From the NCBI RefSeq assembly GCF_026571515.1, contig NW_026860351.1, positions 1 through 64,000 of the forward strand: a DNA stretch of 64,000 nucleotides. The letters run 5' to 3'. The notes beneath the pieces were generated by a model. That model ran no database searches. It was given only the letters and a program-made list of their open reading frames with translations, and had not been told where the DNA came from. The position numbers were made by a program, and so were the translations under genes. Origin of the DNA: Ruditapes philippinarum (lineage: Eukaryota). Shown piece by piece: positions 10,441 through 38,129 of this stretch. Each line of letters opens with the position of its first letter. The stretch's first letter is position 1.

Positions 10441-11470
10441 ATATGTTTCAAAAGGAAATCACTGCAAGTATTTTATATAGTAGGCAGGTATGGACTTTCT
10501 ATTGCCATTTGTTTGAAGATGATGTAAAAATAAAAATATGAGATATATAATGTATGGTATGAACATAATCAAATCACTATAGAAAATAATTAATTTATTT
10601 AAATGCAAATTATGCCTTAGAAATCCATATTTCTTAAATTCTTTAGAAATGTCAAACATGTGTTTAATAATGTTTTGGTAATAGGCTTACAGTATGTATA
10701 ATGTTTATCTACCAAATAAATAGCGCTGAACATGTAGTAATTTGTCATAAAAGAAGCGAAATGTAAAACAATGCTGTATTTTGACTTCCATAAAAAATTC
10801 TATTTAGAAAAATTGTAACACCTTATTTTTTTGGAAGGTATAAAGATGCCAAAAATAAAACAATTCTTGAGAAATAAATGGAAGGAAAATAAAACAGGAC
10901 CTGGGACATCTATGATAATTGTATATATATATAATTATATTGTTTTAAACACAAAATTAACACGTTGCTCTGATGTCAAAGTAAGAAATAGTTTGTTCTT
11001 CATTAAATAGTGCGTCATTAGTCATATTAAACCCTCACAATAGTAATTAATTGTAACGGTCCTATCGCATTTAGAGTCACATTTTTGGGTGAATATTTTT
11101 GGCAAGCAGTAAACGAAAAAAAAATGGCGGCGAACGAAAATGAGTTACATCTGGGCACATTTATGTTGTTTTACAAAAACGCAACAGTGCGTACGTACCC
11201 TATAAAATTGCGTTTTAGCGGAGACAAAAGATTAAAATCATGACACCGCCATTTTGTTTTGTATTTAACCATTATGTATTACAGAAATTAATTCAAATGG
11301 ACGGAGATTATGAATTCCATGTGTTATCTGTGATTGCTGTTCTAAATTGATCGTCAAGTCCACTTTAATGCAAATTTGCCTTAAAAATAATGATGATAAT
11401 AATACTACAAGTAATAACAATTTATCCGACATTTCACCATGAAATGTGTATAAATAAACCAAATTCTATT

Positions 11471-11687
11471 AAAATATGACGTATTGATTATTAAAAGAAG
11501 AAAGAAAAAACACCTGCGATTGTTACTATAAAGTCAATAAAAATATATTGTATACAATATAGTCACAATGAACACGCGCGAAAAATATGACGTATTGAGT
11601 ATAAAAAAAGAAAAACACCTGCGATTGTTACTATAAAGTCAATAAAAATATATTGTATACAATGCAGTTACAATGAACACGCGCGAA
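11471..11687. repeat. Tandem duplication of ~110 bp
   Basis: AAAATATGACGTATTGA...GAACACGCGCGAA occurs twice, head to tail. Confidence 0.85.
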
Positions 11688-13402
11688 GTTAAAATAAGTG
11701 ATGGGCTAGGTCTTTTATAGAGTTACCGAATCTAATTGATTCTTTTCATATACATATTATTACCTCCCCTGGCCGCGCCATTTTGAGGGTCATTCTCAAT
11801 ATATATCATATGATTAAGATAAGAAAAAAAATCTGACATACTACTGTCATCTTCTTATAAACTGATAAACATCTTATACATATTCAATTTGGTGCTATAA
11901 TAATATTTTCCTTTATATGTATTAAAGCATTTGACAATTGACCAAAATTAGCTGTTTATTTCGATGTTTTCATATTGTGTCAATCCAATTGTCTGCCACT
12001 TTTGGTAAGGGAGGTAAGTAATGTAAATTTGGGAATTATCTATTTATCTGTAAAATTTATCATGGATGAAATGTGTTCCTCGAATGTGGCGCTGGATTTA
12101 AATGAAACGTAACTACATCGCGAAATAATAGCTCGTAAAGTGTCAGTCGAACCCCCGTGTTGAATTAATTAAAACACATACGCTAGAATGAAAAATTATA
12201 ACGATTTGAATATATTTTGCCGACTCTTTGTCATCCGGAACATCTTTTTAAAATCTTGTTTATTCTTCGATATATTTAAATGTAAACAAAGCAATATCAT
12301 GAACGTTTTTTACGTTACAAGTGACAGTGCCATTTTTTATTGAACATCCTAATGAAATGTCAAAATTTTGTGACTAGAAGAGAGGTCATACAGGCGGCAT
12401 CCATTTAGATGAAAAAACACTGAACAACATGCGGTTAAAATTTGACATGTCCACATGGTTGGTTTGTATGTACAATATAAGTAATCAGCAAATAAATAAG
12501 TGTACATTTAGCTTTTATATCTGACATGAGTTTGGTCATTTTCAACTCGATATACATGTAATTCTTCATTTAATTAGATAAAATAGTTTCAACATTTCCG
12601 AACATTTACTTGTTACTCGTTTATTGATAAACTGTTTTTAAGAATAAAAAAATTCCCTTACCGAAGTATTCCAGAACGGATCATTATTATTCATTGTCAT
12701 TTTCTTTTATGTCAATAGAAAAAAAAGAGTTTAATAAGAAGGAATCTGAAAAAGGCATACATTTCGGTTTAAGTTTTCACAAAAGGCGAGCGTCCATTTT
12801 TCGCTGGTGACGTAAATGATATTACTAATTTTTAAGTAAGGAAACATAAAAAATGGACGCATTCAGTTCAGTCAGAAACGTCGTTTACTTTGCAATTTAC
12901 AAATACATGTACATTCAGAGAATATAATAAAACCATTGTCACTCGAACCTATTCAAACTGGAATCATAACACTGGGCCACTGTTTAACAGATATGTTGCT
13001 TTTGTTTAAATGTTGATACACATTTATGTAGTTTTTATTTGTTTGGGTCATCAGACCAAACAAATAATGGTAGCGAAATTTCAGACTCTAATGCTGTTAA
13101 TTGCAAGTGCCGAAAGTATTCCGCTTTTTTGAAACGGTTACTTCTCTTTATATGTAACACTTAGGCCGAAAAATTTAGGGAATATCACTGCGTAAATATG
13201 GTAACATGACAGGCGGATTAATTTTCAAGCAAAATAATTCCCGAATGGTCGAAGATTTCTCATATTGTTTTATTCTTTATAGATATACATGCTTATATAT
13301 AGTAAGCGCCATGATTATGTACACAAGTGTTAAACAACAGTTAGCGTCGTTACAAACCCTAACAAGAATAATATGGTTTTCTTCAGGCCGTTAACATATA
13401 AA

Positions 13403-13470
13403 TTCACCGTGGCCGAGGGGTTTGCCCGCTCGCTTAGGAAGCGAGAGGTCTGGAATTCCCAGTTAAGGTA
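13403..13470 (+). pseudogene. tRNA-Pro(AGG)-like degenerate sequence or SINE head
   Basis: A-box-like GTGGCCGAGGGG; perfect anticodon arm CTCGC-TTAGGAA-GCGAG followed by AGGTC; T-arm damaged; downstream T-run. Confidence 0.55.
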
Positions 13471-16400
13471 ACTCATTTTTTTTCAAATTGTTTAAGTCAA
13501 TGAACATTGGATCGAATATCAGTGTTGCAATTAGTCTTATAGCCATTCTACTACAATTAAAACGCTGGAAAGCATTGGTGGCACTATACAAAAACAAATT
13601 GTTTTATAATCTCACAACCTTCACCTTTCTGATATTCTGAAACCCAAACAAATTCAGCGCCTTCTGTGCTTTGATTAAAAAAGGGAAATTAAAACAGCTT
13701 CCTATAACAGAACATTATTCCGTCGACTTAAAACCGTTTATAAATTATAATTGTAAATGTAGAACACTCAAGTTTGCCAATAATATAAGTGGTATAAAAC
13801 TACTAGAAAATAATCAGATTGAAATGTATCTTAACCGATAAAAAATTGAATTATAAGATGTCTTTCCGAAGCTTTGTAAAAAATAAAACTGTAATACTGG
13901 TCTGTTAATTCGATGTCCGTCCCAGTCATAGTAGCTGCGTTGAAAAGGTTATGATTAAGGAATAATACATTGTTTCAGCGGTGTTTATCGGCTATTTAAC
14001 ACCGGTTTGGAGTTTTGATGCGTAGAAATTGACCACGAAGGCAATAGGTTGTGAAAACTATCTTATAGAGGTAGAAGAAAAAAACAACAACTGAATCTAA
14101 CGAGTCTCGAATCTAACTAATATATATTGGCAGTTTAACACCGGTTTCGTTGTGTATAGTGACACAACCACGAATGTATTGTTCAAACTGTCCTGACTGA
14201 TGAAATGATGTTACCGTGATTGTGAAAATGTTATTGTATCTAACTAGCTCACTTGTATCTCGGTTTTGAAAATCTGCTATCTCATCTAAGATTGTCTTCT
14301 TATAATTCTTCCCTCTTAAAATATCTCATTAAGGCAATAAGCCTATGTACATATACATGTATACATAACTCCAAAAGGACATGGTATTTTAACAGGGCAT
14401 TTGTTTTTAAGATAGTTGATGTCTATCCGATAAATAGTAGCAGCTGAAGTATATGTTTATATTCTACTTGCATATATTGACATGAATATTGCTAATCATT
14501 TAAATACGTTTATTTCTCATGTTGGTATCGATTAATTGCGGACCAAACATAAATGTTCACACAAAAATGTGAACTGAAAACAGAATTCAATTTCAACAAT
14601 TCAGTGAGTATGTGTTGTATGTGACTTCAAATTAATATGAATAGAAAGCTAAAATATAACAACAACCAGAACTCTGAATATTTTTCATGCTTAAAAGATA
14701 TCGTCTTAATCGTATTCTTTATTTAGTTATCTTTGTATCGTCTTTATGAAGCATTGTATTTCTTTAAATAGTTGTATCTTGCTTTAAATCATACGCTTAA
14801 CCGTATATCTGACTGATTGAAGTACATGTACAATCACTATATAAATGCCGTTATGTACTGTAATGGAATTGTATCGTAATGTGTTCTATTGTGTTATCGT
14901 TTCTCAAAACTAGTGTCCAGTAACAAATTTACCTCTGCACTCTTTTATCTTTATATTTAAACCAAAGCGCACGTATAAACAATTCATCTAAATTAACGCC
15001 AGCGCAGTAGGCATGACGATAGTCTCAAATGAAGAAGACAACGGAACATGTTTGAGGATAGTTTGATTTAGTGTATTTCATGTACAATGTAGTTGATCTA
15101 CACGCTCTTTAAGTTAAAAGGAGAAAATAAGAATCCCTACAGAAAACGGAAGTCAATAATACTTTATATAATTCTACACAATCTGTAAAAGATACCTTTA
15201 TAAAAGATATTCAAATATGTTACATATGCTAGCATGTCTATTTTTCTTTGAGTGTAAGACACTTAATGAGATTTGCATTTCTCTTTCTCCTATAAGAATG
15301 TTAGACGTAATAATACTTTGTGAAATGTCTATTTATCGAGATAAATGAGAAAAATACTGATTCTATAAATGACACATTTATTCATATGACACATGCAAAT
15401 AATGTATCATCTTTCCTTGTAAAGAAGATGAAGTTACAAATTCTATTTGCATGACTTTAAAACTGAAACATTAGAAAGGTACGATTAAAACGCTGATGTT
15501 TAATAAACATCAATACTTCACAGTCTGGCTTAAACCTTTTGTTTGTGACTATGACATTCCATTGGTATAAGGTTGTTCATCACTGATTTAATGTAAAGTT
15601 GTAAAATATAGATCTAGGTTTATAGATCGGATACTTAACTAGCTTATTATCGTTATAGGACACTATTTCATGGTCTTAAACCGTATGCACAATATAGTAA
15701 AACTTTAGAATTGTAGAACTTTCAAGTCGCTATGATTTCCACTATGATAATGGGCACAGAAACGACTAGACAAAATCCGATTGAAATGCGATTGAAATAA
15801 TTTACTACCCCTTTACCGTTAACAAAACGTAAGTCCGCGTATTTAAATCGTTTGTTCGTAACGGTGATATAAAGCATTGTATTGCATTGTATTGTGCGGT
15901 GTTGTCATTTACTGTCATTGACGGGCTCCTTGTAGACCGCTATTAACGCACGCGTTTTAACTGACTGGCTACACTACATTTATTACATGTTAACATCGTA
16001 TCTGACCGGTTATCATTCTATTCTATATCTTGAAAAGACTAAAGTGGTAAAAGCTTTGTATAACTATTTAAGCTTTCTGTTAAGCTTCCACTACTGTACA
16101 TGTGAAACTCTGTTTTATCACAATGTTAAAATTGTATCGTTTGAACTTCTTTTGAGTCTGTTAATACTTTCACCACATGTAACGAATTATGTCGTTATTT
16201 TGCTCAATCGTATTGGATCGGTGTTAAACTGCTGATATATGTCGCTTTAACAATTCTTCTTTTTGGCATTCGTCTCCGTATTTAGACAGGGCATTAACAA
16301 CACGTGCACATATTTGTATGAATTTAAAAGGAATTTATTATTGCGTGGCAGCGAAAATACTTTTTTGTTTGTGTATTAAAGAATGAAAGTAACAGGAAAA

Positions 16401-17142
16401 ATTCAACTTATATAAATGTATATGAATTATGCAGCATATTTTCTAGATACGTATTCAGAATTCGGCTGAATATATTAACCTTTCATCCAATTCGTATTCG
16501 TTACTATTTAGATCATGTAATCGTTTATACTTGAAATAATACGTTATCGTTATCTATATGGAACTAATCCGTATACGTTCACATATTTTTGAAGCGTATG
16601 CTTACGCTATAAATAATCCCCATAACGCGTACTTGCTTTATTAGCAATACAGTGTCTCATATGCAGTATTGTAAATTGTATAGTTATGTATTATTTTGTA
16701 TTGTATTGTGTTGTAGTGTATTGTCGTTTACTGTCATTGTCGGCTCCCTGTTGGCCACTTTGACGCATGCGTTTTAAGTGACCGATTTCACTACATTTAA
16801 TGCATGTTAACATTTCGTATCTAACCGTTTTTTTGTATTTTCTGATCGCAGATCAGGACAATCTTAACAACAAAAGTAGTTCTCAAAACAGCTTAAAACT
16901 AGCGATGTAAAAGAAAGAAATATTTTTATTTTGTTACAAGTATCAAAGAAATTATAACACATTCAGTAGTGAGTAGTGAAATTTTATATGCATGTCGGAA
17001 GATTTTCGCAAAATTATTTACACCAGTGTTAAACAACAGGTTTACCGACCCGGTTTACCGTGAAGAAAATGTTTCGAAATTGATAAGGATTACGAACCCT
17101 AATGGAAATCATTTGGTTTTTTTCAGAGTTTTTTCTTATTAC

Positions 17143-17207
17143 TTCCCCGTGGTTCAGGGGTAATATGCTCGTTTAGGAAGTTTTGTGTTCAAATCCCAGT
17201 CAAGGCA
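17143..17207 (+). pseudogene. tRNA-Pro(AGG)-like degenerate copy
   Basis: GTGGTTCAGGGGTAATATGCTCGTTTAGGAAG..GTTCAAATCCC resembles the eukaryotic tRNA-Pro D-arm, anticodon and B-box; 3' side of the anticodon stem is deleted. Confidence 0.5.
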
Positions 17208-18117
17208 ACTAATTTTTTAAGTGTCTTTTTAGCGATTTTAACATTGTGTCTCAAGGAATAAGCCACGATATGCAAAGATAGAGTGTGAATGCCATAAAAA
17301 ATACATAAATGATTTCGATTTCTTTAGAAGTTATTATAGATAAGATAATAGCCGAGGACGTTCCGATTGGCTTAGCAGTTGTACTTTATTTAATTGTTAA
17401 AAGTAAATGGCATAACCACAAGGGTTTTATTTCATATTTTAAAGAAAACCCGTGTTTGTTTATTGGGTAGTCTACTGTTGTAGACATCTTTCTAGATATC
17501 TATTTGAAGTCAAGACGTAACATTACTGTTTATATACGACGATGATACCTTACAAATGACATACATTCATCCACTCTGTCATAGCTAACGATCCGTAACA
17601 CACAAAGACAACAACAATAAATTGACGTTCATTGTTGGCTTATTATACAGAAATCAACATTATCTTTAAAAAAATACAGGTTACTAAAACATAGATATTT
17701 CTTTTAAAATTTTCAAAATTGCACAACAGGAATTTTGCCCTAACTGTTTTTATTTACGGGATAGAAAAGTATTTATGTTTGTGATACTGTTTGTGAGCAG
17801 TTGACCTAGCAATGAATGGAAAGGTGTGGCTAATTGTTCCGCTACGAAAAACCGTTAAGGTCCATTGATTGATCACTACTCTGACCTTTCATTTGATAAC
17901 AATAAGTTTTAAACCAGAAGCATTGACATGTGCTCTTTTGTTAACAAACATGTGGTGAAATTCTTATTGTATCCACTAATCTGATGATAAGAATTAGACA
18001 GGTCAGGGATCTATGCACAAAAACGACTAGACGTAATACGATTGGAATGTTTTATTATTCTATTCCGTTAGCAAATAGAATCTACAAATAGTCTGTTTTC
18101 ATGTTCTAACAATCACG

Positions 18118-18650
18118 ATGAACTCGGATGATTTTGATGATACGTTTACCGCTGAAAATTTGCATGTATTAGACAAAATAGAGCAAAAATCAAACCAAAA
18201 AGTGTTAGAGAAGCTAATTTTACTAGCGAAGAAATTCACCGTCGGTCGGAACTGAAAATGTTCTTCCAACAAAACGCTGTACCTAGTTCGTTACGATGTT
18301 TGGCAGTATGTATGGGTGTTTCATGGCGGGCGTATGACTATATAGAGGAGGACTATCCAAGAAAGTGTCTACTAAGAGTGAATGCCTTGTTTGACATCTG
18401 GTACCCAGTCGCTGACGAAATAGGACAAAGGAACGGGTTGCTGCCTATTCACATATTGGCGTATGTAAAGCATTCAAATCCTTATTATCTTGATCGATCA
18501 CCAAAGGAACAGGGTACGGATTTGACAGAATTCGTAAACAAGAAACTCATTTGTAATGTTATCGAACAGATTAATAGTGTATTACTGAGGAATATGCCCA
18601 AAATTAGAAGAAAAAATGATGTTTGTCCTCAATGTGGTTTCAGCAGGTAA
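18118..18650 (+). CDS. Intronless death-domain-like protein (130-aa ORF at 18258-18650; probable frameshifted N-terminal extension from ATG 18118)
   Basis: LRCLAVCMGVSWRAYDYIEEDYPRKCLLRVNALFDIW fits the death-fold pattern LAxxLG(L/V)SxxxIDxIExDYP...LxxW; C-terminal CPQC; AATAAA at ~18770. Confidence 0.45.
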
Positions 18651-19827
18651 ACGGTTTATGTTCAAGTAAGACCTGCGAATGAATTAAGTTCGTTCATTAA
18701 ATAAGAATGTTGAATCGCAATCGACCTGATATGTCTTGATCATTATGTAGAAAAAACAGTATGAACAACAATAAATTATTTAAAAACGAAAAATAGTTTT
18801 TTTCTTTTTTCCGTTTGCATATTTTATAAAGATCTATAAGTGTTTATGTACGGGGCCATTTTCCAATCGGCTGAGGGCACAAACGACTAGATTAACAACG
18901 ATTAAAACGTTTAGTATTCTTTTCCCGTCTACAGTGTTACAGTGATGAAAGCCTTTAAGTGATACCAAGGTCTCCTCCCAGCGAGTAAGCTTTAATTGAC
19001 GTTTACTATCATTGCGGGGCTCCCTGAAGATGCATTTAATATAATTGATTACACTACAATTCACCTTTCAGATCTTTGTACATTTAAACGTATCGTATCC
19101 GACTGGCTTTCATTCTATTCTATCTTTAGTTCAGACTCTATTATTGAGCATTTGTACTTTTTTTAATTGTTTAAAGTCAATGCTATTACTACAACTATTG
19201 TATTTCCGGGTTTCGCCATTATAAACTTACGTTATAATGATACGTTTAATTTATTTATGGCTGTCATTATACGATCTAACAAAACTCTATTTCATTAAGA
19301 TTTAAACTTCTAAGCATCGCAGATTACACATTTTTGTACATTTTATAAACATAACAATGCGTTTCGTTTTCATCTGAAATGTAGTAAAGTATTGTGAGGT
19401 GACATACGGAACATCACCTAAGGATAAAATAAAATGATAAATATCAATTTGTTAACATGAAGTACAAGACACGTAGAGGTTACTGGTGCTGTTGTGTTGA
19501 GGGGAATAACCTTTTAAAATATCTATTTTCTTCAGAAAAGGAACTTTTCTACATAGCAGCATCTTCGATAATTTTTGTTTAGATCATGCACCTAAACAAA
19601 TCGTATATTTACAAATTTCGCAGACTTAAAGTCGGTGGCATCAGTTCTTAAGTTTGCCTGTTTAAGTAAGAAATCAGTGTGATTAGTTTGTGATAAACTG
19701 GTAAGAATATGCCCGATAGACGTCTTTTATGTAACAGATCTCTTCCTTTATATACCGAAAAAAAAGCGAACTAGAAAATTCATACACGTGCAAATAATAA
19801 TAATTCATGTAAGCTGTTTAAGGAATA

Positions 19828-20788
19828 CAGTAAACTTCACTTATAGCGAACACGGTTATAGCGAACTTCCGGTTATAAGGAACAATTTATTTTGGCCCGA
19901 ATTTCGCCCTTCTTTATTTAATATAAAAATATACGGTTATAGCGAACACGGTTATAAGGAATTATCGCTTATAAGGAACTCATTTCTTAGTCCCAATTTA
20001 GTTAAAAGTGCATAAAATTATACTTTTATAACGAACTCCAAATATCGGCTATCGTAAATATATCCCGCATTTCAACTTTCGTTGAATGTACCGTTTATTG
20101 TTGTATGTAATTCAATATATAAAAATGAATTTGTATAGAAGTATGTAATAGTTTTCTATTTTGGATATTTTTAGCTTGAGTTCTTGTCACAAAGATAAAA
20201 CGGTAATTTCTTTTATTCTATAACTTCTTTTCTTTAATAGTTTTGCTCGAGTAAGATAATTATCGGTTTTCAACATAATCACGCATGCTTGCAAACATAA
20301 TCGATAGAAAACTACAAAGTATGCTTGATTGAAATGAAAAGGAATCTATATATTTCATAAGTTAAAGTCACCCTTAAAATATAATAGAAGATATTCAATA
20401 TAAAAGGAAGAAAAATGGAAAATCTGGTTTATTCTTATTCATTGAAAGAAAACGAAAAGCACTGAGTTAAGAAACAAAATATGATGTTTTATGAAAAATT
20501 GAGAAAGGGAGTAAAACTAAAACTGAAATAGCAAAGAATTTTTTAAATTCCAAAATGTACACTCTCGGGTATTGTGTCTGAAAAAGAAAATAAATGACTA
20601 ATTATTCTAAATCAAATGCTCTTAAAAATGGCGGACGATGTTTAACAATCAGTTCGTTATATGTAAATCTGTTCGCTATAAAAACTCCTGATACAAGGAA
20701 CTAATTCGCTATATGCTTACAAGGAACTCCGGATATAAGGAACAGATTTTGAATGTCCCAATGAGTTCGTTATAAGCGGAGTTTACTG
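19828..20788 (+). mobile_element. pogo/Tigger (Tc1/mariner) internally deleted element
   Basis: TIRs CAGTAAACTTCACTTATAGCGAAC / GTTCGTTATAAGCGGAGTTTACTG with TA TSD on both sides; decayed CENP-B-type HTH remnant (KRKRKALS..EKGSKTKTEIAK..IPKCTLSGI) at ~20445-20575. Confidence 0.85.
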
Positions 20789-20912
20789 TAATAACATTTG
20801 AGACATTTTCATCTTGAATTCACGTGCATTTCATCGTTATTGATATATAATTAAGTCTCATTGATATTATTATCTATTTAGTTATTTTATCAAAAAGACA
20901 TTGTATGTGATG

Positions 20913-21469
20913 TATATAGAAGATATTTGTTTGTTTTGCATGTAAGATTGAAATATAATTTCACTGAGTGAACACCAGATGCAATATTTTCACGAGTGGC
21001 GTAGCCACGAATGAAAATATAATAGCTGGTGTTCACGATGAAATATATTTCAATCTTATATGTAAATCAAATAAATGTTCTTTTTATTTCATGCTTTTTA
21101 AGTGATTTTAAGTATTTTTCACTGATTTTGCCGCATAACGTCGCACATTCTCCTTTGTGACGTCATCACATTATGACGTCACATCATCAATTTTGAAATA
21201 GAGTTCTGTTAAATTTCTCTAATTTTGTTACATTTTTAACATGATGTATGGTGACATCGACTTTCTTTTCCTAAAGAATCACAATTTACGTACATGTATG
21301 ACGGCATTTATTTCTGCCTGTTATTCCATTTAGTAATGATTTTCTTTTCATCCGCATTCGGATATAGTCCGGCTACAGTGAAAATTATATTTTATAAATT
21401 TCACTAGTGGTTTATCAGAATATAATCATCTGATATATTACAATAAAACACTGGAAAGCATGAAATAAA
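20913..21469 (+). mobile_element. Palindromic non-autonomous element (Crypton-like architecture)
   Basis: ~165-bp imperfect hairpin centred on GTGGC-GTA-GCCAC (20996-21008), plus inverted pair TTTATTTCATGCT (21083) / AGCATGAAATAAA (21457); no TSD seen. Confidence 0.55.
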
Positions 21470-21482
21470 TATGAAGAAATAT

Positions 21483-21787
21483 TTTTCTAGATATCCTATT
21501 TGAAGAGACATGATGTAACATTGACATTTACACATGTACTCGTATATGCCGATGATACCTTAAAATGACATATACGTACATGTATTAATCAACTGTGTCC
21601 AACCTTAAAGCGTGGATATAGGTAAAATACCAGTAGCTAACGATCCGCTAAACACAATAAGCAAATTATTGAAAATCTTGATTGGTTGATAATATATAAA
21701 TCAACATGACAGCTTTCTTAAAATTTTCAAAAATGCAGTGCAGAAATGACCCTTACTGTTTTCTTACTTACGGGATAGAAAATGTAT
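21483..21787 (+). repeat. Third, more diverged partial copy of the inner end of the inverted-repeat arm (cf. 17489-17772)
   Basis: Shared TTCTAGATATC, CGATGATACCTTA, TAGCTAACGATCCG, AAAATTTTCAAAA and TTACGGGATAGAAAA in the same order. Confidence 0.75.
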
Positions 21788-22033
21788 ATTTCAGATCTAA
21801 ATGTCAGACATATTTTGCATTAACCGTTCTAAATGTCACTTGAATCATGAATGTTTACGGGAGCAAAATGTATATTGCAGATTAAACGATAACCCTATTG
21901 AATTATGCGTTTGCTTCGTTAATATTTCTGATGTTTCTATTTATTTTATTTATTCGGTTTTGATCATTATCTTTTTATTTAATTCGAAAATATTAATATA
22001 CTATTAAAACTTTTATTTTATAAAGTGCTTCAG

Positions 22034-22187
22034 NNNNNNNNNNNNNNNNNNNNNNNNNNNNNNNNNNNNNNNNNNNNNNNNNNNNNNNNNNNNNNNNNNN
22101 NNNNNNNNNNNNNNNNNNNNNNNNNNNNNNNNNNNNNNNNNNNNNNNNNNNNNNNNNNNNNNNNNNNNNNNNNNNNNNNNNNNNNNN
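22034..22187. other. Assembly gap (run of N)
   Basis: 154 N characters. Confidence 1.
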
Positions 22188-22862
22188 TCCGTAACAAAAG
22201 TGTCCGCTGATTGGTCAATTCCTGCTAGCATTTGAGTTGATTACAATTTAAAATATTTTTCATTATGTTTCAAAACTGGTTGACTTACCAATCTAACAAT
22301 ATCATGGGTGATCTTGCATCACAAAATAAAGAGTTGTTTTAGAGTTTGACATCTAACCCTAACCCTAATCCTGACCCGGTGAAATTTTGATACATAATTG
22401 TTCAGTTATAGGATTTCATGTGTGAAACATTAACTTATCATTTTAGATACATATAGTATATATCTTTTGTATGTACAAGTACATTACAGCGTGCCATAAA
22501 TATAAAAATCAACTTCAATAAAACTAAAATAAAAACAACTAAGTAAAATAAAAATGTATTCATTTCACTTCACTAACCTACCAATTGTTACAATAATAAT
22601 AAAATCCTTATAAGCTGTAAATAATACAGTTACAAAAATAAAGAAAACGAACAACAACAGCATTATTTGACCAATAAGGATTAAAACGATTAAGCCATGA
22701 TACACAATTGACAAAGTGTGAAAATTACGTGAAACTGTTACTGCAGCCATCGATTACCTTTAACTTAGAGAAGCTAACACTATAAATATTTTTTTACTTA
22801 TTAAAAAGAAATAGAAAATTTAATTTACAAATACAATATATATATATCAAATTTCTAAACTA

Positions 22863-23045
22863 TTACTTATTTTGTTTTGCAAATAATATATAGTTTGATA
22901 AATTTAACAGTTGTCTTCTGTTAGCTGGGAACATCAGTCGAATTATTAAGAGCTGAGCACTTTCTCGATAAATTGGGCATACAAGAAGAAAATGATAATC
23001 ATCTTCAACGATATTATCTTGGTTGCAAAATTTAAAATGATTAAA
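22863..23045 (-). mobile_element. LINE (CR1/L2-like) ORF2 C-terminal fragment
   Basis: FCNQDNIVEDDYHFLLVCPIYRE matches the CxxC..EDEYHFLLxCPxY motif. Confidence 0.7.
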
Positions 23046-23103
23046 AGCGCAGATATTCACTATTTAGGTGACATTAGCACGGTTAATGCAAAATTATCTG
23101 ACC

Positions 23104-26100
23104 AAATACTTTTCCATCCCGTAAATAAAAACAGTTAGGGCAAAATTCCTGTTCTGCAATTTTGAAAACTTTATAAGAAATATCTATGTTTTAGTAACCT
23201 GTATTTTTTTAAAGATTATGTTGATTTCTGTATTATAAGCCAATAACGAACTTCAATTTACTGTTGTTGTGTTTGTGTATTACGGATCGTTAGCTATGAC
23301 AGGGTGGATTAATGTATGTCATTTGTAAGGTATCATCGTCGTATATAAATAGTAATGTTACATCTTAATTGTCTTCAAATAGATATCTAGAAAGATGTCT
23401 ATAACAGTAGACTACCCAATAAACAAACACGAGTTTTCTTTAAAATATGAAATAAAACACTTGTAGTAATGCCATTTACTTTTAACAATTAAATAAAGTA
23501 CAACTGCTAAGCCAATCGGAACGTTCTCGGCTATTATCTTATCTATAATAACCTCTAATGAAATCATTTATGTATCTTTTTATGACATTCACACTTTATC
23601 TTTGCATATCGTGGCTTATTCCTTAAGAAAAAATGTTAAAATCGCTAAAAAGACACTTAAAAAAATAGTTGCCTTGACTGGGATTTGAACACAAAACCTC
23701 TTACTTCCTAAACGAGCATATTACCCCTGGATCACGGGGAAGTTATAAGAAAAAAGTCTGAAACAAACCAAATGATTTCTATTAGGGTTCGTAATCCTTA
23801 TTAATTTCGAAACATTTTGTTCACGGTAAACCGGGTCGGTAAACATGTTGTATAACACTGATGTAAATAATTTTGCGAAAATCTTCCGACATGCATATAA
23901 TATTTCACTACTCACTACTGAATGCGTTATAATTCCTTGGATACTTGTAACAAGATAAAAATATTTCTTTCTTTTACATCGCTAGTTTTAAGCTGTTTTG
24001 AGAACTACTTTTTGTTGTTAAGATTGTCCTGATCTGCGATCAGAAAATACAAAAAACCGGTCAGATACGAAATGTTAACATGCATTAAATGTGGTGAAAT
24101 CGGTCACTTAAAACGCATGCGTCAAAGTGGCCTACAGGGAGCCGACAATGACAGTAAACGACAATACAATACAAAATTATACAATACAAAATAATACATA
24201 ACTATACAATTTACAATACTGCATCTGAGACACTGTATTGCTCATAAAGCAAGATACAACGAAAGCTTAAACGATAAAACGATGGGGGACTTTTGAATCC
24301 CTTAGAGTTAAGTAAATATACGCGTTATGGGGATTATTTACAGTTTAAGTGTACGCTTCAAAAATATGTTTCAGGTGAACGTATACAGATTAGTTCCATA
24401 TGGATAACGATAACGTATTTTTTTCAAGTATAAACGATTACATGATCTAAAGAGTAACGAATACGAATTGAATGAAAGGTTGATATATTCAGCCGAATTC
24501 TGAATAGGTATCTAGAAAATATGCTGCGTAATTCATATACAGTTATACAAGTTGAATTTTTCCTGTTACTTTCATTCTTTAAATCACAAACAAAAAAGTA
24601 TAATCGCTGCCATGCAATAATGAATTCCTTTTAAATTCATACAAATATGTGCACGTGTTGTTAATGCCCTGTCTAAATACGGAGACGAATGACAAAAAGA
24701 AGAATTGTTAAAGCGACATATATCAGCAGTTTAACACCGATCCAATACGATTGAGCAAAATAACGACATAATTCGTTACATGTGGTGAAAGTATTAACAG
24801 ACCCAAAAGAAGTTCAAACGATACAGTTTTAACATTGTGATAAAACAGAGTTTCACATGTACAGTAGTGGAAGCTTAACAGAAAGCTTAAATAGTTATAC
24901 AAAGCTTTTACCACTTTAGTCTTTTTAAGATATAGAATAGAATGATAACCGGTCAGATACGATTTAATAGCGGTCTACAAGGAGCCCGTCAATGACAGTA
25001 AATGACAACACCGCACAATACAATGCAATACAATGCTTTATATCACCGTTACGAACAAACAATTTAAATACGCGGACTTACGTTTTGTTAACGGTAAAAG
25101 GATAGTAAATTATTTCAATCGCATTACAATCGGATTTCGTCTAGTCGTTTCTGTGCCCATTATCATAGTGGAAATCATAGCGACTTGAAAGTTCTACAGT
25201 TCTAAAGTTCTACTATATTGTGCATACGGTTTAAGACCATGAAATAGTGTCCTATAACGATAATTAGCTAGTTAAGTATCCGATCTATAAACCAAGATCT
25301 ATATTTTACAACTTTACATTAAATCAGTGATGGATAACCTTATGCCAATAAAATGTCATAGTCACAAACAAAAGGTTTACGCCAGACTGTGAAGTATTGT
25401 TGTTTATTTAACATCAGATTTTTAATCGTACCTCTCTAACGTTTCAGTTTTATAGTCATGCAAATATAATTTGTAACTCCATCTTCTTTACAAGGAAAGA
25501 TGATACATTATTTGCATGTGTCATATGAATAAATGTGTCATTTTCAGAATCAGTATTTTTCTCATTTATCTCGATAAATAGACATTTCATAAAGTATTAT
25601 TACGTCTAACATTCTTATAGGAGAAAGAGAAATGCAAATCTCATCAAGTGTCTTACTTTCAAAGAAAAATAGACATGCTAGCATATGTTACATATTTGAA
25701 TATCTTTAATAAAGGCATCTTTTACAGATTATGTATAATTATATAAAGTATTATTGACTTCCGTTTTCTGTAGGGATTCTTATTTTCTCCTTTTAACTTA
25801 AACGGCGTGTAGATCAACTACTACAATGTACATGAAATACACTAAATCAAACTATCCTCAAACATGTTCCGTTGTCTTTTTCATTTGAGACTATCGTCAT
25901 GCTTACTGCGCTGGCGTTAAGCGTTTAGATGAATTGTTTATACGTGCGCTTTGGTTAAAATATAAAGATAAAAGAGTGCAGAGGTAAATTTGTTACTAGA
26001 CACTGGTTGTTAGAAACGATAACACAATAGAACACAACACGATACAATTCCATTACAGTACATAACGGCATTTACATATTGATTGTACATGTACTTCAAG

Positions 26101-27496
26101 CAGTCAGATATACGGTTGAGCAAGATACAATTATTTAAATCATGATACAATGCTTCATAAAGACGATGCAAAGATAACTAAATAAAGAATACGAGTAAGA
26201 CGATATCTTTTAAGCATGAGAAATATTCAGAGTTCTGGTTGTTGTTATATTTTAGCTTTCTCTTCATATTAATTTGAAGTCACAGACAACACACTCTCAC
26301 TGAATTGTTGAAATTGAATTCTGTTTTCAGTTCACATTTTTGTGTGAACATTTATGTAATCGATACCAACGTGAGAAATAAACGTATTTAAATAATTAGC
26401 ATTATTCATGTCCATATATGCAAGTAGAATATAAACATAAACTTCAGCTGCTACTATTTATCGGATAGACATCAGCTATCTTAAAAACAAATGGCCTGTT
26501 AAAATACCATGTCCTTTTGGAGTTCACGTATACATGTATATGTACACAGGCTTATTGCCTTAATTAGATATTTTAAAAGAGGGAATAATTATAAGAAGAC
26601 AATCTTTTAAGTGAGTTAGCATATTTTCAAAACCGAGATACAAGTGAGCTAGTTAGATACAATAACATTTTCACAACTAGACATACATCACGGTAACATC
26701 ATATCATCAGTCATGGTTCCAGACGGTCACAGTTTGAACGATACATTAGTGGTTGTGTCACTATACACAACGAAACCGGTGTTTAACTGCCAATATACAC
26801 TAGTTAGATTCGAGACTCGTTAGATTCAGTTGTTGTTTTTTACTTCTACCTCTATAAGATAATTTTCACAACCTATTGCCTTCGTGGTCAATTTCTACGT
26901 ATCAAAACTCCAAACCGGTGTTAAATAGCCGATAAACACCGCTGAAACAATGTATTATTTCTTAATCATAACCTTGTCTACGCAGCTACTATGACAGGGA
27001 CGGACATCGAATAAACAGACCAGTATTACAGTTTCATTTTTACAAAGCTTCGGAAAGACATCTTATAATTCAATTTTTTATCGGTTAAGATACATTTCAA
27101 TCTGATTATTTTCTAGTAGTTTTATGCCGTTTATATTATTGGCAAACTTGAGTGTTCTACATTTAAAATTATAATTCAAAAACGGTTTTAAGTCGACGGA
27201 ATAATGTTCTGTTATAAGAAACTGTTTTAATTTCCCTTTTTTAAAAACTACATAAATGTGTATCAACATTTTAATAAAAGCAACATATCTGTTAAACAGT
27301 GGCCCAGTGTTATGATTCCAGTTTGCATAGGTTCGAGTGACAATGGTTTTATTATATTCTCTGAATGTACATGTATTTGCAAATTGCAAAGTAAACGTTT
27401 CTGACTGAACTGAATGCGTCCATTTTCTTTATGTTTCCTTACTTACAAATTAGTAATATCATTTACGTCACCAGCGAAAAATGGACGCTCGCCTTT
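23104..27496 (-). repeat. Right arm of the large inverted duplication
   Basis: Reverse complement of 12782-17774 with scattered substitutions and indels; mirrored spurious ORFs (15987/24723 and 16969/23721). Confidence 0.95.
23670..23741 (-). pseudogene. tRNA-Pro(AGG)-like degenerate copy (mirror of 17143-17207, slightly more complete)
   Basis: Minus strand reads TCCCCGTGATCCAGGGGTAATATGCTCGTTTAGGAAGTAAGAGGTTTTGTGTTCAAATCCCAGTCAAGGCA. Confidence 0.5.
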
Positions 27497-29819
27497 ACCT
27501 TATTTATTCTAGTACAGAATATGTATAGTATTTTACTTTGTTGATATGATAAAACGGGCTGATATTTTAAATGATTTTAGTATTCTTTTTATTTTAGGAC
27601 TTTATTACTTATACTGGTATAAAGCGTGTATAACGCTTTAGTTTGATAAGAAAACGAAGTCATATTTTTAATGTTTTTTTCTGCTTTTTTAAAATCACAT
27701 TATTTATACTTGTATAAAATGTGTATAATGCTTTAGTTTGTTGAGAAAACGAAGTGATATTCATTATCATTATTATTATTATTTTCAAGACTACATCATT
27801 TATACAAGCATAGAATATGTATACTAGTAATTCTTCATTTGTAGCTATTACATGCGTTCGAGCAGTCAGTATTTTCAAATTAAATTAAATTCTAGCCGGG
27901 ATTTACTAAGTGTATACGCATACTTTATTATTTGGCCATTTCTTTTCTTTACGTCACTCAACTATTGTATTTAAGAATGTAATGGCGGTGATAGATTGAT
28001 AGATTATCGGAAATTTGATTGTTTTGTTTGTTTGTTCTTCTTCTTATTTACTGATAAACTGATTGTTTACTAGTACAGTAAATTTCATCGAAGGTATGCA
28101 GATTTAATAGAAACACTCCATTAGAAATAAGATCAACTCCACTTGAAATAAGAAAGAACACACATACACACAAACACAAATAGAGTAAGCATAAACAAAC
28201 ATAAATTGTCATTTTTACAAATACACAATGTATACAAGTACAAGATATGTTTATTACAAAAACAGATAAAAGAGTGAACCTTTCACACTATATTAGTTAG
28301 CTGTTACGATAGCTGTTCAAATGTTGACACTGTTATAACATAACATCTAATCTCTCTTGAAACTGGCATATTGAAAATGCGTGTACAAAAAATCAATAAT
28401 AAAAATAAAGTGAAATAAAAATGTAACAAAGTTATAATAATTTACATTATCATTATAATTATTATATACAAAATATTGTACGCGTACAATTTTTTTTTAA
28501 AATGCCACATATATACTGACCTCGTTTCTTCAAGTCATAACATAATATAAATAGGTTTAACCACTTTATGCTTATGCTTTCTGGCAGTTAATAAATTTTA
28601 TAAAAATGCCCTTCTTTCATTCAAACATATCACTTTTGTTTTCCCTGCATTCAGACAAGTTCGTCCTTGCCGTGACTATTCCCATCACTGTACAAAATCA
28701 TAAATAAAACACAGTTTGTGAGTAACAGTAAAATATATCATCCCGAAGAAAATACTATTTACCCGAAGAATTAGCTAACACTGTTTTCCAAGCGATGTTA
28801 ATCACAAACTGCGTGTTATTTATTTTATTACCCCGAACTTATACTTCACTAGGACACTCTTTCTATAGGTTTTTAAATTTCAGATTTTTACTGATAAAAT
28901 ATACTAGTAACTATGTAACAACACAATATTTTTACTCACTTGGTACACTTGAATCAAAAGTAAGAATAGCTGCCACATTAACAATACAGAATTAGTGAGG
29001 GGAAATAATACGATGTTTTTCCAGTTACTGTCACGGCATTGTATTCTAACATCAAAATTGCGCGGTAGTATACTATTTTTAGAAATAATTTGATGAAATA
29101 AAAAAGAGGTCTCTATCGACTGGCAATCCTGTTTTTCTGCTCTCTCGTCAATGGTAAAGCGTCGACACGACACTCTGGCAAAATGCCTGAACAAGTCGTG
29201 TTCAGTGAAATCTAGGTCATTTTTAATTGCTTTTTTTTTTCTCCGCTAATGAGTAACATGTCATTAAAAAATGACTAGCATTGAGCCGCTACCCGAGCAA
29301 CGGCTTCCAGCAATTACTTTATCTCATAATAATGATAATAATAATCTTCATCATAATCATAATAATAATAACCGTTGTTATTATTATAATGACAGACATT
29401 CTGCCGCCTATTTTGAGTATCGAGATATATTTCGATACATACTTGATAAACCCCAAAGGAATCTCCCTCCAATAAGACGCCATTTTTTTTATCTTATTTA
29501 AAAATAACTCGAATGGCTAACCGCCATCTTTAATTCAATTTAAAAAGACTCATAAAGGCTATTATAACATGCTCGTTTTCGTACAATCCAGTTAGAATAA
29601 GCGTCAAAATATCTCCTTTCAGAATCAAAAAAGTAAAGCTGACTTATCATAAGTGTTGAATAAATAAATGTTTAGACCGGCTGCTGAGCAATATGTGAAC
29701 CGGTCTGTTGGTACTGTACGTGTCCTGAGACTCCGGGAATGAAACTATTTCTTTTCTGCTTATTTTGAATCTGCCTTCTCGATCTACCGAGATACTCTAA
29801 CTTGGTTTCAGTTCCGCCA

Positions 29820-30182
29820 TTACTGTCCCTCATCCCTAAGGGTTGGTCCGAATGTCGCTTTGGCTTTTCTGTACTTAAGTCCGGGACTCGGCAGCACGTA
29901 GCCGACGGCCGAGCTGAGTAGAGCAATCCAGAGTTCTTGATTTGACCCGGAATTGATCGAAAGATTGACCGCAGACACGATTATTATTCCGTATATGGCG
30001 ACTATTTGAGCGATGAAAGTAACGCGGTTCTTAGGCAGCCTATTGCCGCAAACCACGCAGTCGCTAGAGACCGCCCGGCCGCCCTGAAGCTCACTTTCCT
30101 CACAGATTTTAAAAGGTTCGCGTTCTGGTGAAATTTCTCCAGTCTTGCTCAAAGATATAGACACGCTGTCGGCGGTAGCCAT
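29820..30182 (-). CDS. Small two-transmembrane protein of the type found in Polinton/Maverick gene modules (120 aa)
   Basis: CG..LPK..VTFIAQIVAIYGIIIVSAVNLS..SNQELWIALLSSAVGYVLPSP; intact ATG to TAA; stop overlaps the next ATG (TAATG). Confidence 0.65.
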   Translation of the reverse strand: MATADSVSISLSKTGEISPEREPFKICEESELQGGRAVSSDCVVCGNRLPKNRVTFIAQIVAIYGIIIVSAVNLSINSGSNQELWIALLSSAVGYVLPSPGLKYRKAKATFGPTLRDEGQ

Positions 30183-30319
30183 TTCGAATTTAATGGTGGT
30201 CAGTAAAAACTGACCCGTTTATAATAATAATAATAATGTTTATTGAGAAAACATTTCAATACACACACATACTGCCTATAATCACTCATTCATGCATCAC
30301 TCTCCCCATTGGTTGCCAG

Positions 30320-30630
30320 GTAAACTATCCGCCATCTTTGTTTTTCATTACGGAACTAGCCGCCATCTTTATTTTTAATTATGCAAATATCCGCCATCTT
30401 TATTTTTAATTAAACATCTTTTAAAAGGACACTTTGCCTTTCAAGTGCCATTGAAAACCACTTCAAAAGGATATTCTACCTTTCAAGTACATTGGCAGAC
30501 CACTTCAAAAGGATATTCTACCTCTCAAGTACACTCGAAGACCACTTCAAAAGATTAACATTACGTCATAATCCCCAAACCTAAACTGCTCCTGCTCACA
30601 ACTCCCTCTCGCTATCCGAATGACACTACT
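30320..30630. repeat. Putative Polinton terminal inverted repeat (single copy in window)
   Basis: CCGCCATCTTT at 30329/30360/30391 (period 31); ACCACTTCAAAAG at 30457/30499/30541 (period 42); terminus ACTACT. Confidence 0.65.
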
Positions 30631-32967
30631 TTTATGTTTATGCTATGCCTAGTTTTTTGTTTTGTTAAATTTTAAAAACATGCTAAACGTGGTACAGATC
30701 AAAGAGTATGAGCTACTTTCCAATTTTACCAAGAGATTTATTTCCCTCTAATACAAAGATATCTGAATAAGGTACGCGTGGTCTTGAGTATTTTCATAGA
30801 AACACTGTTAGACTTAATGCATGTCTTACTCAATTCTAAGTATTTCATCACTGTGTGGATTCTAGTTTACTAACATTTTTCTTATGTTATCAACACAAGT
30901 TTGAACACTGTCATGTTTGTTTGTAAGATTCGGGGTCTTTTTACAGCAGAAATCATTCGTACATTCGACAAAACATATTTGAGCCGCATATGCATACGCA
31001 TGTGCATATTTCATTTCACTGAGCAAAGTCATCATATGTTTGAATTTTTGAGATTACTGAAAAATAATGTTGTCTTTAATTGTTGAATGATTGATATGTT
31101 TTTATTTTCAGATTTTAAGGGCTTCTCCTACCATAGGTATAATATTAAACTGTTACAAATATTAGTCGCCGGTTTCTACCGCGACAAATAATATAAAACT
31201 TAAAGAAGCCTCCGATATCAGGAAATGATTGTTACAAAAATACAAGTACGCAAATAACATGATATTGCCATATAACTTATGAACATACGTATAAACGTTA
31301 CAATAGATTTTTTATAAAAGATACAAATAAACGAATATGGTTTCGTTGATTGGAAACAATGGGGAAATGAAGCATCAAATTTACTTTGAAGAAAGTTTAA
31401 CTCGTACGCTTTTTGTATTTTCAATATAACTAAACGTTACATATATACAGAATCACCGTTTAATATACGTAGAAAATGATATCTTCAATGAGTTCAATTT
31501 TCGAAACTAGTTTGTATTGCTTCAAAAATAATTCAGATTATTGGCTTTTTTATCTTATAATGTCCTACGTAGGAGTTATAAACTCCCTTTTAGGCTTATT
31601 TTTTTATCTCCTACGTAAATGTCTACTTTACTTCATTTTTATAACTAATAATATATTTTCCGTTTGATTCACCATTCCTTAAAATGAGCTTTTTGTATAC
31701 AAAAATAAACGTAGATCAAGCTATGTTCCAGTACACCTGAAAATTGACACCCAGAGCTTTAATTACCTCTAGAAAACATGGTGGCAATAGATCTATCAAA
31801 AAACCAAACGTGTCAAAAACAACAGATGCACTGATGAAAATAACGTTCATTTTCTTCAGTTACATCAACGACAATGACGGTTTATTTCTCGATGAACACG
31901 CCAACAGAGCACCTGTACAATGACAACTATTCCGTGTTCTCACAGATTATTATTAATGAGGGAAATGCCTGTGCCAGTTGGACATTCAAGTCCCAGTTCC
32001 AGGCATCTACCAGTTCTTTGTAACTTGTAACTATATACTTTGTAACTACACAGTGTTTCATTAGGAAGAATAGGGATGTTCTGTTCTCGTTTATGCATGG
32101 ACTACAGGAAACACAGACTGCGTCAACTAACGTACATTGCCTCACTGGTGACGTCATATATACGAGTATTTCGTGTGACGGTTTGGAAAACATGGATCAC
32201 AATCAGACATCACTGTTCAGTGGTGCACTAGTTTCAGCTAAGGAGAAACATAAAAGCTTTGAAAGAAATACTGTATTTGTTATTTTGTTTTTTTATAGAT
32301 TTATTTATAACGTTAGTGGTAGGCTAAAATTAATTTCATTGAAATTTTATCCTTATCAAATGATGTAGAGTTAGATCCTACATACCCGTAGAAAAATGTT
32401 TATACGTAAATATATATCAGATATAATATATCAAAGGGTGTATTCCGTAAAATTGTGCTAACGGGTGTAAAAATTATGGTGAAACCGATACAAGTTGTCC
32501 ATTTTCCCCATGAAATAACATTCATAGGTTAGTACGTACATGTACAATGACTTGTATCATAGTTTGGGGTCCTTTCTGTTGAAAAAGTGTCAGAGTTAAA
32601 TCGTATACATATATATGCACAGTGCGGTAACTGGAGTGCGGGTATCAGTTACCAGCACTCCAGATAATGCCCGTTGATTGGTTCATTTTTGCTGGGGTTT
32701 ACTTATTGTGATGGCAGAGAAAGGGAAAGGGGCAGAAATATCATATTCAAATGCTCGTTCATTGGTTCATTTTTTCTGGGGTTTTGTATTATGACAACAG
32801 GGAACGTGCTGTCATGTTTGACTATAATACAAAAGAGAAAGAACACCAAAATACTCGGCAATCTGATTTATACTCGGGGGCTACGCCACCTCGTACAAAT
32901 CAGATAGCCTCGCGTTTCGGTGATCTTTCTATTACTTAACTTAGTTAACGCGACATGCATGCACACT

Positions 32968-35900: not shown

Positions 35901-36739
35901 GGTGTTTTCATGTAGAAATTCATCAGCTTCATTTTCATGAGGTATTCCTTCATTCCTAAATGAACTCTTTTCAAAACAGAATATTTTATCCCTGCCTTAT
36001 CCATCAAAAATCGGGCGGTTGAGGAATATCCGAACTGGTCCATGTCGAATGACGTAATGGGTAAGACACCAAGATGTTGCTTGACCCAAAAATGACCTTC
36101 AATCATTTGATCTAAATACGCAAAATAGTGCGGCGTAGCCTCATCCGGAATGATCCATGCGCCGGAAGTTATTTCCAGACGGCCTGATTGCACTAAACGT
36201 TTAAATTTAATCTTATTCGATTTATTTTGCCTTGTCCACCATCGTTCAAGAAGGCATGTTTCAGGCCATACAAAAGTCGCGTCATTGTACTGATATAGCA
36301 TCTCGACCAACAATGACAAAATGTTGCTTGTTGATTCATGAAAATACTCCGAGAACGTCTTCTTATAACCGGGATCATTGTGTGAATGAGGCACAACAAT
36401 TACCGACAAGAGCTCTTTTCTACGTTTCTGTTGCGTGAAGTTCTTCACATAGTCTGGAAGTGTGTCTGTAAAATTACTGTTCACAAAATCTCCATGTCGT
36501 TCCACATGCGTCATGTGATCAAGAATATCGTTCACTGTAAAATCGATAGGTATGTCCAACCTGGTGATAAATTTAGACATGTTATACATGAACAATGTTT
36601 TATCTGAATTTTTGACGAGATGTTGTTTATAGAACAACATCACCTGCAACGTAAATACTCCGAAAAATAGGACGCATATGTATCGTAAATATTTTTTCTT
36701 TAAAATCGAATAAGACATCGATATAACAATTCTATCCAT
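32968..36739 (-). CDS. Golgi alpha-mannosidase II-like (GH38), type II membrane protein, ~1078 aa; exons 36739-35867 and 35331-32968
   Basis: N-terminal TM; motifs VPHSHNDPG, GAWIIPDEATPHY, DQMIEGHFW, DQFGYS, PHGGDFRY, YWSGYFTTR and FQHHDAITGT. The GT..AG phase-0 intron at 35866-35332 joins the two ORFs in frame (via VEPYEWLSFPDSCGP). Confidence 0.92.
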
Positions 36740-38129
36740 GGTAATTTTTTTATCATGGAAAACATACCTCTTAAATTTTACATGTAATTCAAGACTGTAA
36801 GTTAATACAATCTTTTTGTTTACAAATAATTACAATCGATTTCAATGGAATTCATAATTAGTTTAAAAAACAATAAGGTGTCCATTTTGTAGACTGTTAT
36901 AAACAAAAGCGAGTGTTTAATTGTCACTGGTTAATCCTACACCACCGATGATATACTTCAATAATTTTCCGCCATAATTTGCAGAAGTAAGGACGGAAAA
37001 GACCGAAACAGTCCGATTAGATTAGTACATTAAGACACATAATGGTGGATATTTATTTTTTTCTCAATTTTTTGTGTGTTTAATTTGGAATTACAGAGAG
37101 GGTTCTATAAAATATAGAGAGTTTTCACTCAAATAATTATGTTGTTCTTGTTTTGGTAGACTTATAATTTTACAATTAGGATGTTTTTATTCCTAATGCG
37201 GCTTGTTGAAAATAATTTTTATAAAAGATGATGATAGCTCGTGCATTGGGTTAAAATCGAAAAAGAAATTGTCACGTCTTAAATGTAAAAATAACTTACT
37301 TTTGAAAAGTTGCATGATGTTTTATAAGAAACTTGTCCAACTTGTATGAAAATGACATGGGGCATCATTGTTTTATTTTTCTTTAGTCATGTGATAAAAA
37401 TCACAATTGCATTTTGATAGATGGATAAACATAAAGAAAGATATCTTATTGCATGGTATTGGAAATAAATCTTTTATATAGTAATCATTTGGTCTAGTAC
37501 AAGTATCGTTCGACACAAACGCCTCTATATTTCTATATTTCGAAATTAATCATCATTAATAAGTTCGGCATAAACTTAATGGTATGCTGGAATACTGCAT
37601 GGTATCCCATTGATTCAACCCAAGCGTGAAGCTCTCCTTACTAAGCAGGTACCGAGTGTAAGCCTTTTCATTGCCTCCGTCCTCTTTCAAAAACTCGCTA
37701 AGTGCTGTACGGAACCAAAGTCCGAAGTGTCGATGAACGTCGACTTATCGAAAAAAATTGAAATAGTTGAGCCCGCCTCTCACAATACGAATACCATACA
37801 GGGTATAGTAGGGTGACGTAATCTCATTGATGATATAGTCGGCTTTTCCCTGCTGTCCCGTCTGTGAGCAGCTTCCAAAAATTTCGACCTGCACACAGAT
37901 TCTCGTATTAGACTAGAGTTAAACTTTTCTCGAAGGCTTTGTGTCTCAGAATTACTTACAATCCAAGCCGCCATTTTGGTTTTCTTCTGAAATATTGCAC
38001 TATAGCTTATATTTGAAAAATCGTTTTCCCCTATAAATATTCCGATTGGTCTTAAAATATCTGAATCTTGACGATAGCTCTAAGACCAATTAAAAGCATA
38101 TCTAAAATGTTTTTGTCGGAACCAGTTCG

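Follow-up and report, generated by a model that had tools for sequence, protein, structure and literature searches.

A Polinton/Maverick terminus in a clam genome, and the fold-back derivative that it probably bounds

At position 30630 of the 64,000-bp stretch analysed here (the window), a repeat-rich sequence stops abruptly beside an intact open reading frame of 120 codons. What kind of element ends at this point? The initial annotation regarded 28904–30630 as the terminal relic of a deleted Polinton/Maverick-type virus. Polintons are described as elements of 13–25 kb with AGTAGT...ACTACT ends and a 6-bp target duplication (PMC8097293; 10.1101/2023.08.22.554363). They are reported to be common in bivalves (10.1101/2025.04.19.649669), so one more Polinton end would be ordinary. 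The unusual feature is what lies behind it: a successful gutted family with inverted arms of 4–5 kb, an invertible centre and probable same-end isomers. In all likelihood, a multi-copy Polinton derivative has its right end here; about 17 kb of fold-back DNA, most of it non-coding, stands in place of its core genes, and complete Polintons likely mobilise the derivative in trans.

The terminus and its insertion sites

The element terminates in ...GACACTACT at 30630, and the next six bases are TTTATG. Reading of the sequence and TRF agree with the initial description of this end and of two arrays inside it: CCGCCATCTTT at 30329, 30360 and 30391 with a period of 31 bp (TRF score 138), and ACCACTTCAAAAG at 30457, 30499 and 30541 with a period of 42 bp (score 165). 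The expectation that 30320–30630 forms element ends elsewhere was borne out by a search of the 1.4-Gb mollusc assembly with 30200–30680, which gave at least 26 matches, all scored. Most break off at query base 431, corresponding to 30630; ACTACT is the end in 24 of the 26, and the DNA beyond the termini is unrelated among them, except for one duplicated pair. Sixteen copies are right ends, on the side of the 120-residue gene (two of these calls rest on few letters), eight are left ends and two are untyped. Because left-type copies become similar from 30228, the terminal inverted repeat (TIR) is defined as 403 bp. Both a motif of the (AGT)2...(ACT)2 type and a TIR within the 46–1,447 bp of Polintons are therefore present, with one TIR only inside the window; TIRs of about 400 bp and a 6-bp duplication are likewise shared with Polintons/Mavericks (Polintoviricetes; ‘adintoviruses’). 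A short-read contig (run X2, 30601–30911) crosses the 30630/30631 junction with no differences. The end at 30630 is confirmed as a genuine Polinton/Maverick terminus.

Flanking hexamers prefer a symmetric CATATG-like target, with T at position 3 and A at position 4 each in 54 of 84 flank readings. Exact 6-bp duplications are found within single contigs of sister families (CCTATT in C579, CTTAGT in C15084, GTTGCA in C14624); C1945 and C12910, also of sister families, have a duplication with one mismatch. Within the window's own family, three of six independent left ends have the complementary hexamer on a right end (P=0.001, column-shuffled flanks), and in two of these three left-right pairs the TIR haplotypes are not mutually nearest. 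The two contigs of one pair, C946/C3994, share an overlap of 4.6 kb (97.8%) and together cover about 24.8 kb, which becomes 18.7 kb once three nested insertions are removed. A search for the TTTATG-flanked mate that the initial annotation predicted found a TIR end with the matching hexamer, read inward, at the end of C15740, the nearest relative of the window TIR among 11 right ends. TTTATG fits the target preference and is probably a target duplication whose mate, C15740, lies on another contig. We initially took C15740 for an ordinary left end but set this aside, as the bases at its very end look right-type, a tentative call made on about two letters. Neither window flank gave a third locus in the genome that could be the empty site; one contig of run X6 lies on the flank from 30651, preceded by 96 unaligned letters, and is possibly the empty allele.

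Architecture and relatives of the element

The inner boundary initially placed at 28904 does not hold: all eight right-end copies tested continue through 28701–29100, and the element reaches about 11068. Window 11068–30630 is colinear with C5903:9934–29380 and with parts of at least 15 other contigs. Judged from these alignments, the element appears to span from about 11068 to 30630 (19.5 kb), with inverted arms of 4–5 kb around a 5.3-kb centre (Table 1). The locus is thus a deleted Polinton end, as first described, but its extent is that of a 19.5-kb multi-copy fold-back derivative and not of a short 1.7-kb relic.

Table 1. Features of the element in the window
Feature	Position	Strand	Remarks
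Truncated left part	11068..12781		host DNA abuts at 11068/11069
Left arm, inverted repeat	12782..17774		90–96% like right arm
Central spacer, 5.3 kb, between arms	17775..23103		both orientations among copies
~180-aa accessory ORF	18079..18650	+	two frames here
Right arm, internal inverted repeat, 4.4 kb	23104..27496		non-coding
Subterminal non-coding block	27497..29691		29.5% GC
5′ stub of retroviral-type integrase gene	29694..29833	-	ATG overlaps last 14 nt of 120-aa ORF
120-aa Polinton accessory protein (P0001)	29820..30182	-	disordered N-terminus, predicted helical hairpin H51-76/H82-96, LPxP
Right TIR, family ‘W’, 403 bp	30228..30630		AGTAGTG... read on minus strand
TIR sub-repeats	31-bp unit 30323-30412; 42-bp unit 30423-30553
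TTTATG, probable 6-bp target-site duplication	30631..30636	+

The origin of the coding remnants is seen by comparison with contig C13429, which carries, at 96–98% identity, the same TIR, the P0001 gene and then an rve+chromo integrase ORF (rve, E=6e-13), and which is 97–98% identical to window 29694–29943. Relative to C13429, the window stub lacks 64 bp at 29788, and homology stops at 29694, before the rve core. From this comparison, the window holds the first part of a C13429-type integrase gene, broken at 29694. The initial annotation had seen no pPolB, integrase, ATPase or second TIR in the window; the stub at 29833–29694 contradicts this for the integrase, and the other three are indeed absent. 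No further polymerase or integrase sequence was detected as an ORF or by tblastn in 9001–31500, and the window copy does not appear to be an autonomous Polinton. It differs from Polintons in having no polymerase, capsid, ATPase or whole integrase and in its non-coding, folded-back interior. A 5.2-kb retroelement (L048:2993–8153) interrupts the P0001 gene of C13429; its ends are inverted, it carries RT/RNase H as well as a recombinase-like ORF, and we take it to be DIRS-like.

Left ends with the same TIR carry a 170-aa ORF and an ATPase gene (C6210, C945, C1723, C10456), the latter absent from the window. The C1945 ATPase, 89% identical to the same-TIR ATPase, matches Pox_A32 at E=3e-6. An rve+chromo integrase and an A32-type ATPase, both shared with Polintons, thus occur in same-TIR copies. 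The integrase probe gave seven matches, only C13429 above 74%, with no intact same-TIR helper among them, and the same-TIR contigs that were read contain neither a capsid nor a polymerase gene. In sister families, whose TIRs differ, the order is TIR, P0001, integrase, capsid-like, polymerase-like, two accessory ORFs, ATPase, 170-aa ORF, TIR; their full elements measure 21–24 kb, with many genes broken. The capsid-like gene encodes a conserved 417 aa at the expected position, and its bivalve matches are named ‘F54H12.2-like’; it is presumably the capsid gene (double jelly-roll major capsid protein). The polymerase-like gene of close sister families shows the GDTDS motif only. Neither the polymerase nor the capsid genes of sister families matched Pfam or PDB, and a PF00770 maturation protease search had no match, in the controls either. 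The distant family on C12910 contains DNA_pol_B_2 (Pfam, E=4e-21) with a P0001 homologue adjoining. For a gene of one Polinton family in this genome, the nearest relative that bears a name comes from a venerid clam (93%). Between the integrase and capsid-like genes of a Polinton family, at L089:1123–1710 (C12910:51123–51710), there is a TBP-like ORF (Pfam TBP, E=2e-26).

Further inside the window element, 28516–29691 resembles, at 86–88%, the sequence that adjoins the inner edge of the TIR at the other end, the ATPase side, in a sister Polinton family. The right arm is low copy (26 genome matches to a 501-bp probe), and the left arm carries a 640-bp insertion at about 13038–13674. The accessory ORF in the centre has relatives of about 50% identity in another family, where they lie some 2.2 kb away from the ATPase, and its dN/dS among copies ranges over 0.08–1.0, on few changes. 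The idea of a death domain in this ORF was abandoned, with no Pfam hit, atlas hits below 0.9 and one database homologue. The leftmost part of the element is closest to left ends of a sister TIR family, ‘K’ (C7692, 98.6%, substitutions only), and is without the left TIR and most of the 170-aa ORF.

Among 12 right ends with readable interior, 11 are gutted at the same integrase point, indicating a mobilised non-autonomous family. Short-read contigs from runs X6 and X12 span the gutting junction. Both inverted arms are present in eight contigs; inside one contig the arms differ by 2–10%, each with its own insertions. The centre has one orientation in the window, C5903, C13135, C14798, C10119 and C7692 and is inverted in C4753 and C946/C3994; that of C5903 also contains an insertion of a 164-bp satellite type. 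The same fold-back interior is found behind the K TIR in at least eight contigs. With K and W TIRs on the same interior, and 163 of 300 informative TIR column pairs failing the four-gamete test (a number that homopolymer errors may inflate), the elements are recombinant mosaics. Their parts derive from at least three co-resident Polinton families; trees of the arms mostly lack resolution. The smallest elements are about 12 kb (C4151/C4892, calculated) and the largest 20.6 kb; a strict 20-kb size set by packaging is accordingly favoured only weakly.

Irregularities mark both contigs that run the whole length of the element. The flanks of C5903 do not match and its TIRs are 93% alike; the window copy has no left TIR, its left half being K-type and its right half W-type. 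Either misassembly or ectopic recombination at a later time could account for this. K-left/W-right hybrids were considered as true insertions and rejected: none of 11 K-left flanks fits any of the 15 typed W-right flanks, and the one that matched an untyped end is low-complexity. Thus, the window hybrid is likely a mis-join or the product of later recombination. Fold-back elements break assemblies and probably mis-join them too.

In three cases, two ends of the same type that lie on separate contigs have a target duplication in common and rank as nearest relatives. C4151 and C4892, both K-left, are 98.5% alike over 1,291 bp and have a common deletion absent in the other K-type ends compared. 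The right end of C5903 is paired with C11721, also of right type and nearest to C5903 among 11 right ends; a third right end with CATATG, C7261, is without a nearest-relative mate. The window is paired with C15740 through TTTATG, and C15740 is nearest to it among 11, with two differences in 407 bp, its side being typed right only tentatively, on about two diagnostic letters at the contig end. The hexamer match of this last pair alone has P=0.04, and target preference raises chance matches; the right-right pairs alone have P=0.02. The pooled P=0.0003 for same-type pairs is overstated, as it includes a left-left pair, C287/C1145, which was dropped since C1145 has its own right end. We suggest that symmetric (snap-back) defective genomes, with the same terminal module on both sides, probably exist; the reading is held only as probable because no single contig contains a whole symmetric copy. 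A right-right copy would measure 20.4 kb. If symmetric insertions are real, the unmatched left halves of the window and C5903 would be mis-joins between near-identical copies.

The 120-residue gene

The intact ORF just inside the TIR is present as initially described, with 50.7% GC compared with 32.4% for the window. One of the two hydrophobic helices originally claimed is clear (Kyte-Doolittle 19-residue maximum of 2.0); the other is weak (about 1.0). The ORF was also said to end at an LPSP motif, yet 19 further residues follow. In the predicted model, pLDDT is 79–86 over most of the helical residues (51–76 and 82–96), with a mean of 66. Q59, W85, L88, G94, P98 and P100 are conserved at 97–99% in 121 aligned members. 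These members correspond to no Pfam family, and P0001 has no PDB or fold match at E≤0.001 and no match in viral contigs. Its relatives comprise 1,502 clusters at E≤0.001; the nearest atlas clusters are labelled Preplasmiviricota, each on three annotated members.

The 62 P0001 matches in this genome are accounted for by 11 own-family copies and 43 other loci. Inspection of the homologues' neighbourhoods, proposed with the initial annotation, showed that 35 of the 43 have a gene of the Polinton core close by (for integrase, ATPase, capsid or polymerase): 20 of 21 loci read directly, one being bare, and 15 via ATPase coordinates, with the other seven outside the count. Two placements recur, immediately upstream of the integrase or of the ATPase. 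At 14 loci P0001 is within 0.8 kb upstream of the ATPase; these are not independent, because many are copies of one family. P0001 therefore represents a large family (1,502 clusters, no Pfam family), as yet unnamed, that is linked to the integrase or ATPase gene. dN/dS is 0.22–0.25 against four sister-family copies and 0.06 against a fifth, from another family. Together with the core-gene linkage, the value of about 0.24 between families identifies P0001 as a genuine Polinton accessory gene, in agreement with the original suggestion, and the gene is under selection in the parent viruses. Its intactness is not special to the window copy: the gene is whole in only 4 of 11 own-family copies, as expected if the window copy is young. 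The gene is likely a passenger in gutted elements, kept because it is located between the TIR and the breakpoint.

In the parent virus, P0001 most likely serves as a small accessory factor anchored in a membrane. Tectiviruses have membrane proteins at the packaging vertex; this analogy and the gene position tentatively suggest that P0001 might act in the packaging or entry apparatus, an assignment that we consider somewhat doubtful. P0001 is absent from the vertebrate Polinton core genes as listed in the available part of PMC8097293, and from the membrane-active genes (PLA2X, GasderminX, Cupiennin) named for adintoviruses in that of PMC8502044. It may be one of the numbered ‘Adintoc’ genes.

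Origin of the gutted copies

How did the element lose its core? If a complete Polinton had been inserted here and its interior lost later, a short terminal relic would be left. Such in-place decay would fit the missing left TIR of the window and has parallels in single-locus deletion copies of a sister family (C579, C15084). But 11 independent sites have one integrase breakpoint and one 2.2-kb block in common, nine of them at 95–99% identity, and the element reaches 17 kb beyond the extent proposed for the relic. The breakpoint common to independent sites largely refutes this explanation, which we regard as very improbable. Still less credible is that the 120-aa ORF is a gene for a membrane protein, either of the host or domesticated, standing beside a repeat by chance. 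The window ORF is intact and RNA-library contigs cover it, but those contigs also traverse the whole TIR up to the terminus, so they may be DNA or read-through and are no evidence for expression; most other P0001 loci adjoin Polinton core genes, and 7 of the 11 own-family copies are broken or altered.

More serious, though still improbable, is the view that the Polinton ends are real while viral replication made neither the fold-back interior nor the same-end pairs, both being due to faulty assembly or to post-insertion chromosomal rearrangements. Most copies run off contig ends, a symmetric copy with its two ends is seen in no contig, both full traversals show irregularities, and target preference makes chance hexamer matches, such as that possible for the window pair, more frequent. 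Read artefacts, however, would not give arms that diverge within a contig and carry separate insertions. The private deletion shared by C4151 and C4892 also argues against this view, as do C11721 and C15740, each nearest, among 11, to the sole right end with a matching hexamer.

We thus favour a Polinton derivative mobilised in trans. Polinton replication is described as beginning at the termini by terminal-protein priming (PMC11161782), and a retroviral-type integrase as inserting the DNA (PMC8097293). Free linear copies would replicate from their TIRs by protein-primed strand displacement with a helper polymerase, only the TIRs being required in cis by the gutted element. Template switching would make the inverted arms, arm-to-arm recombination would flip the centre, and intermolecular recombination would give left-left and right-right forms. 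A helper integrase would then insert copies at CATATG-like sites with a 6-bp duplication; packaging may or may not take part. More speculatively, and with considerable doubt, the copies could be germ-line fossils of defective-interfering Polinton genomes. These would be helper-dependent fold-back molecules of about 12–20 kb with recombination across TIR families, a flipping centre and left-right, left-left and right-right isomers, formed in a pool of freely replicating molecules and perhaps lengthened by padding to a packageable size. Polinton virions are described as unobserved in most hosts (10.1101/2023.08.22.554363; PMC8097293). If true, the fossil reading would give genomic evidence, of an indirect kind, that animal Polintons have a phase outside the chromosome, possibly as virions, and the conserved two-helix P0001 would be a membrane component of the Polinton particle. 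The defective-interfering-like isomers, if real, would offer a testable handle on Polinton replication outside the chromosome.

Kapitonov and Jurka are said to have described, in 2006, non-autonomous Polintons that lost the polymerase, kept the TIRs and were apparently amplified. Mobile polintons of butterflies that lack polB likewise lost the polymerase, kept their TIRs and apparently amplified; they differ in keeping most genes and carrying TE cargo, and no fold-back interior, invertible centre or same-end forms are described for them in the available text (10.1101/2025.02.07.637071). The literature searched, with Repbase, subscription papers and supplements outside its scope, gave no account of fold-back or symmetric Polinton derivatives or of P0001; Repbase or supplements may already list the P0001 gene or non-autonomous mollusc Polintons. 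Adenovirus 12 SYREC reportedly has the same viral end at both sides and genome-length size, and a derivative that the kalilo plasmid gave rise to by deletion is said to form hairpin and duplex DNA. SYREC genomes are described as symmetric, helper-dependent recombinants (PMC2396429). Both share with the clam elements the character of helper-dependent defective protein-primed linear replicons of symmetric or hairpin form. They arose in culture or mitochondria without an integrase, whereas the clam copies are germ-line insertions with target duplications.

The DNA around the element contains other features. An alpha-mannosidase (GH38) gene with two very long ORFs (787 and 341 aa) lies 2.3 kb from the terminus (32968–36829, minus strand), and an exon-like stretch with an in-frame stop, presumably C1q domain-like, at 31860–32200 (plus strand). 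On the other side, a 689-aa NACHT-like ORF (6284–8353, minus strand) is located in a low-copy host block, 4933–11069, with paralogues on C6970, C600 and C15025. Satellite arrays of 164–168 bp occupy 60–771, 4238–5013 and 61494–62445. Two smaller fold-back elements with long inverted arms are found at 46441–49579 and 58006–59414, one of them with a nested fold-back element. ORF fragments at 50464–51066 (plus strand), 41325–41798 and 39487–39900 (both minus strand) resemble, by our reading and in this order, a transposase of the P-element/THAP kind, an Hsp70-like exon and the C-terminus of a LINE.
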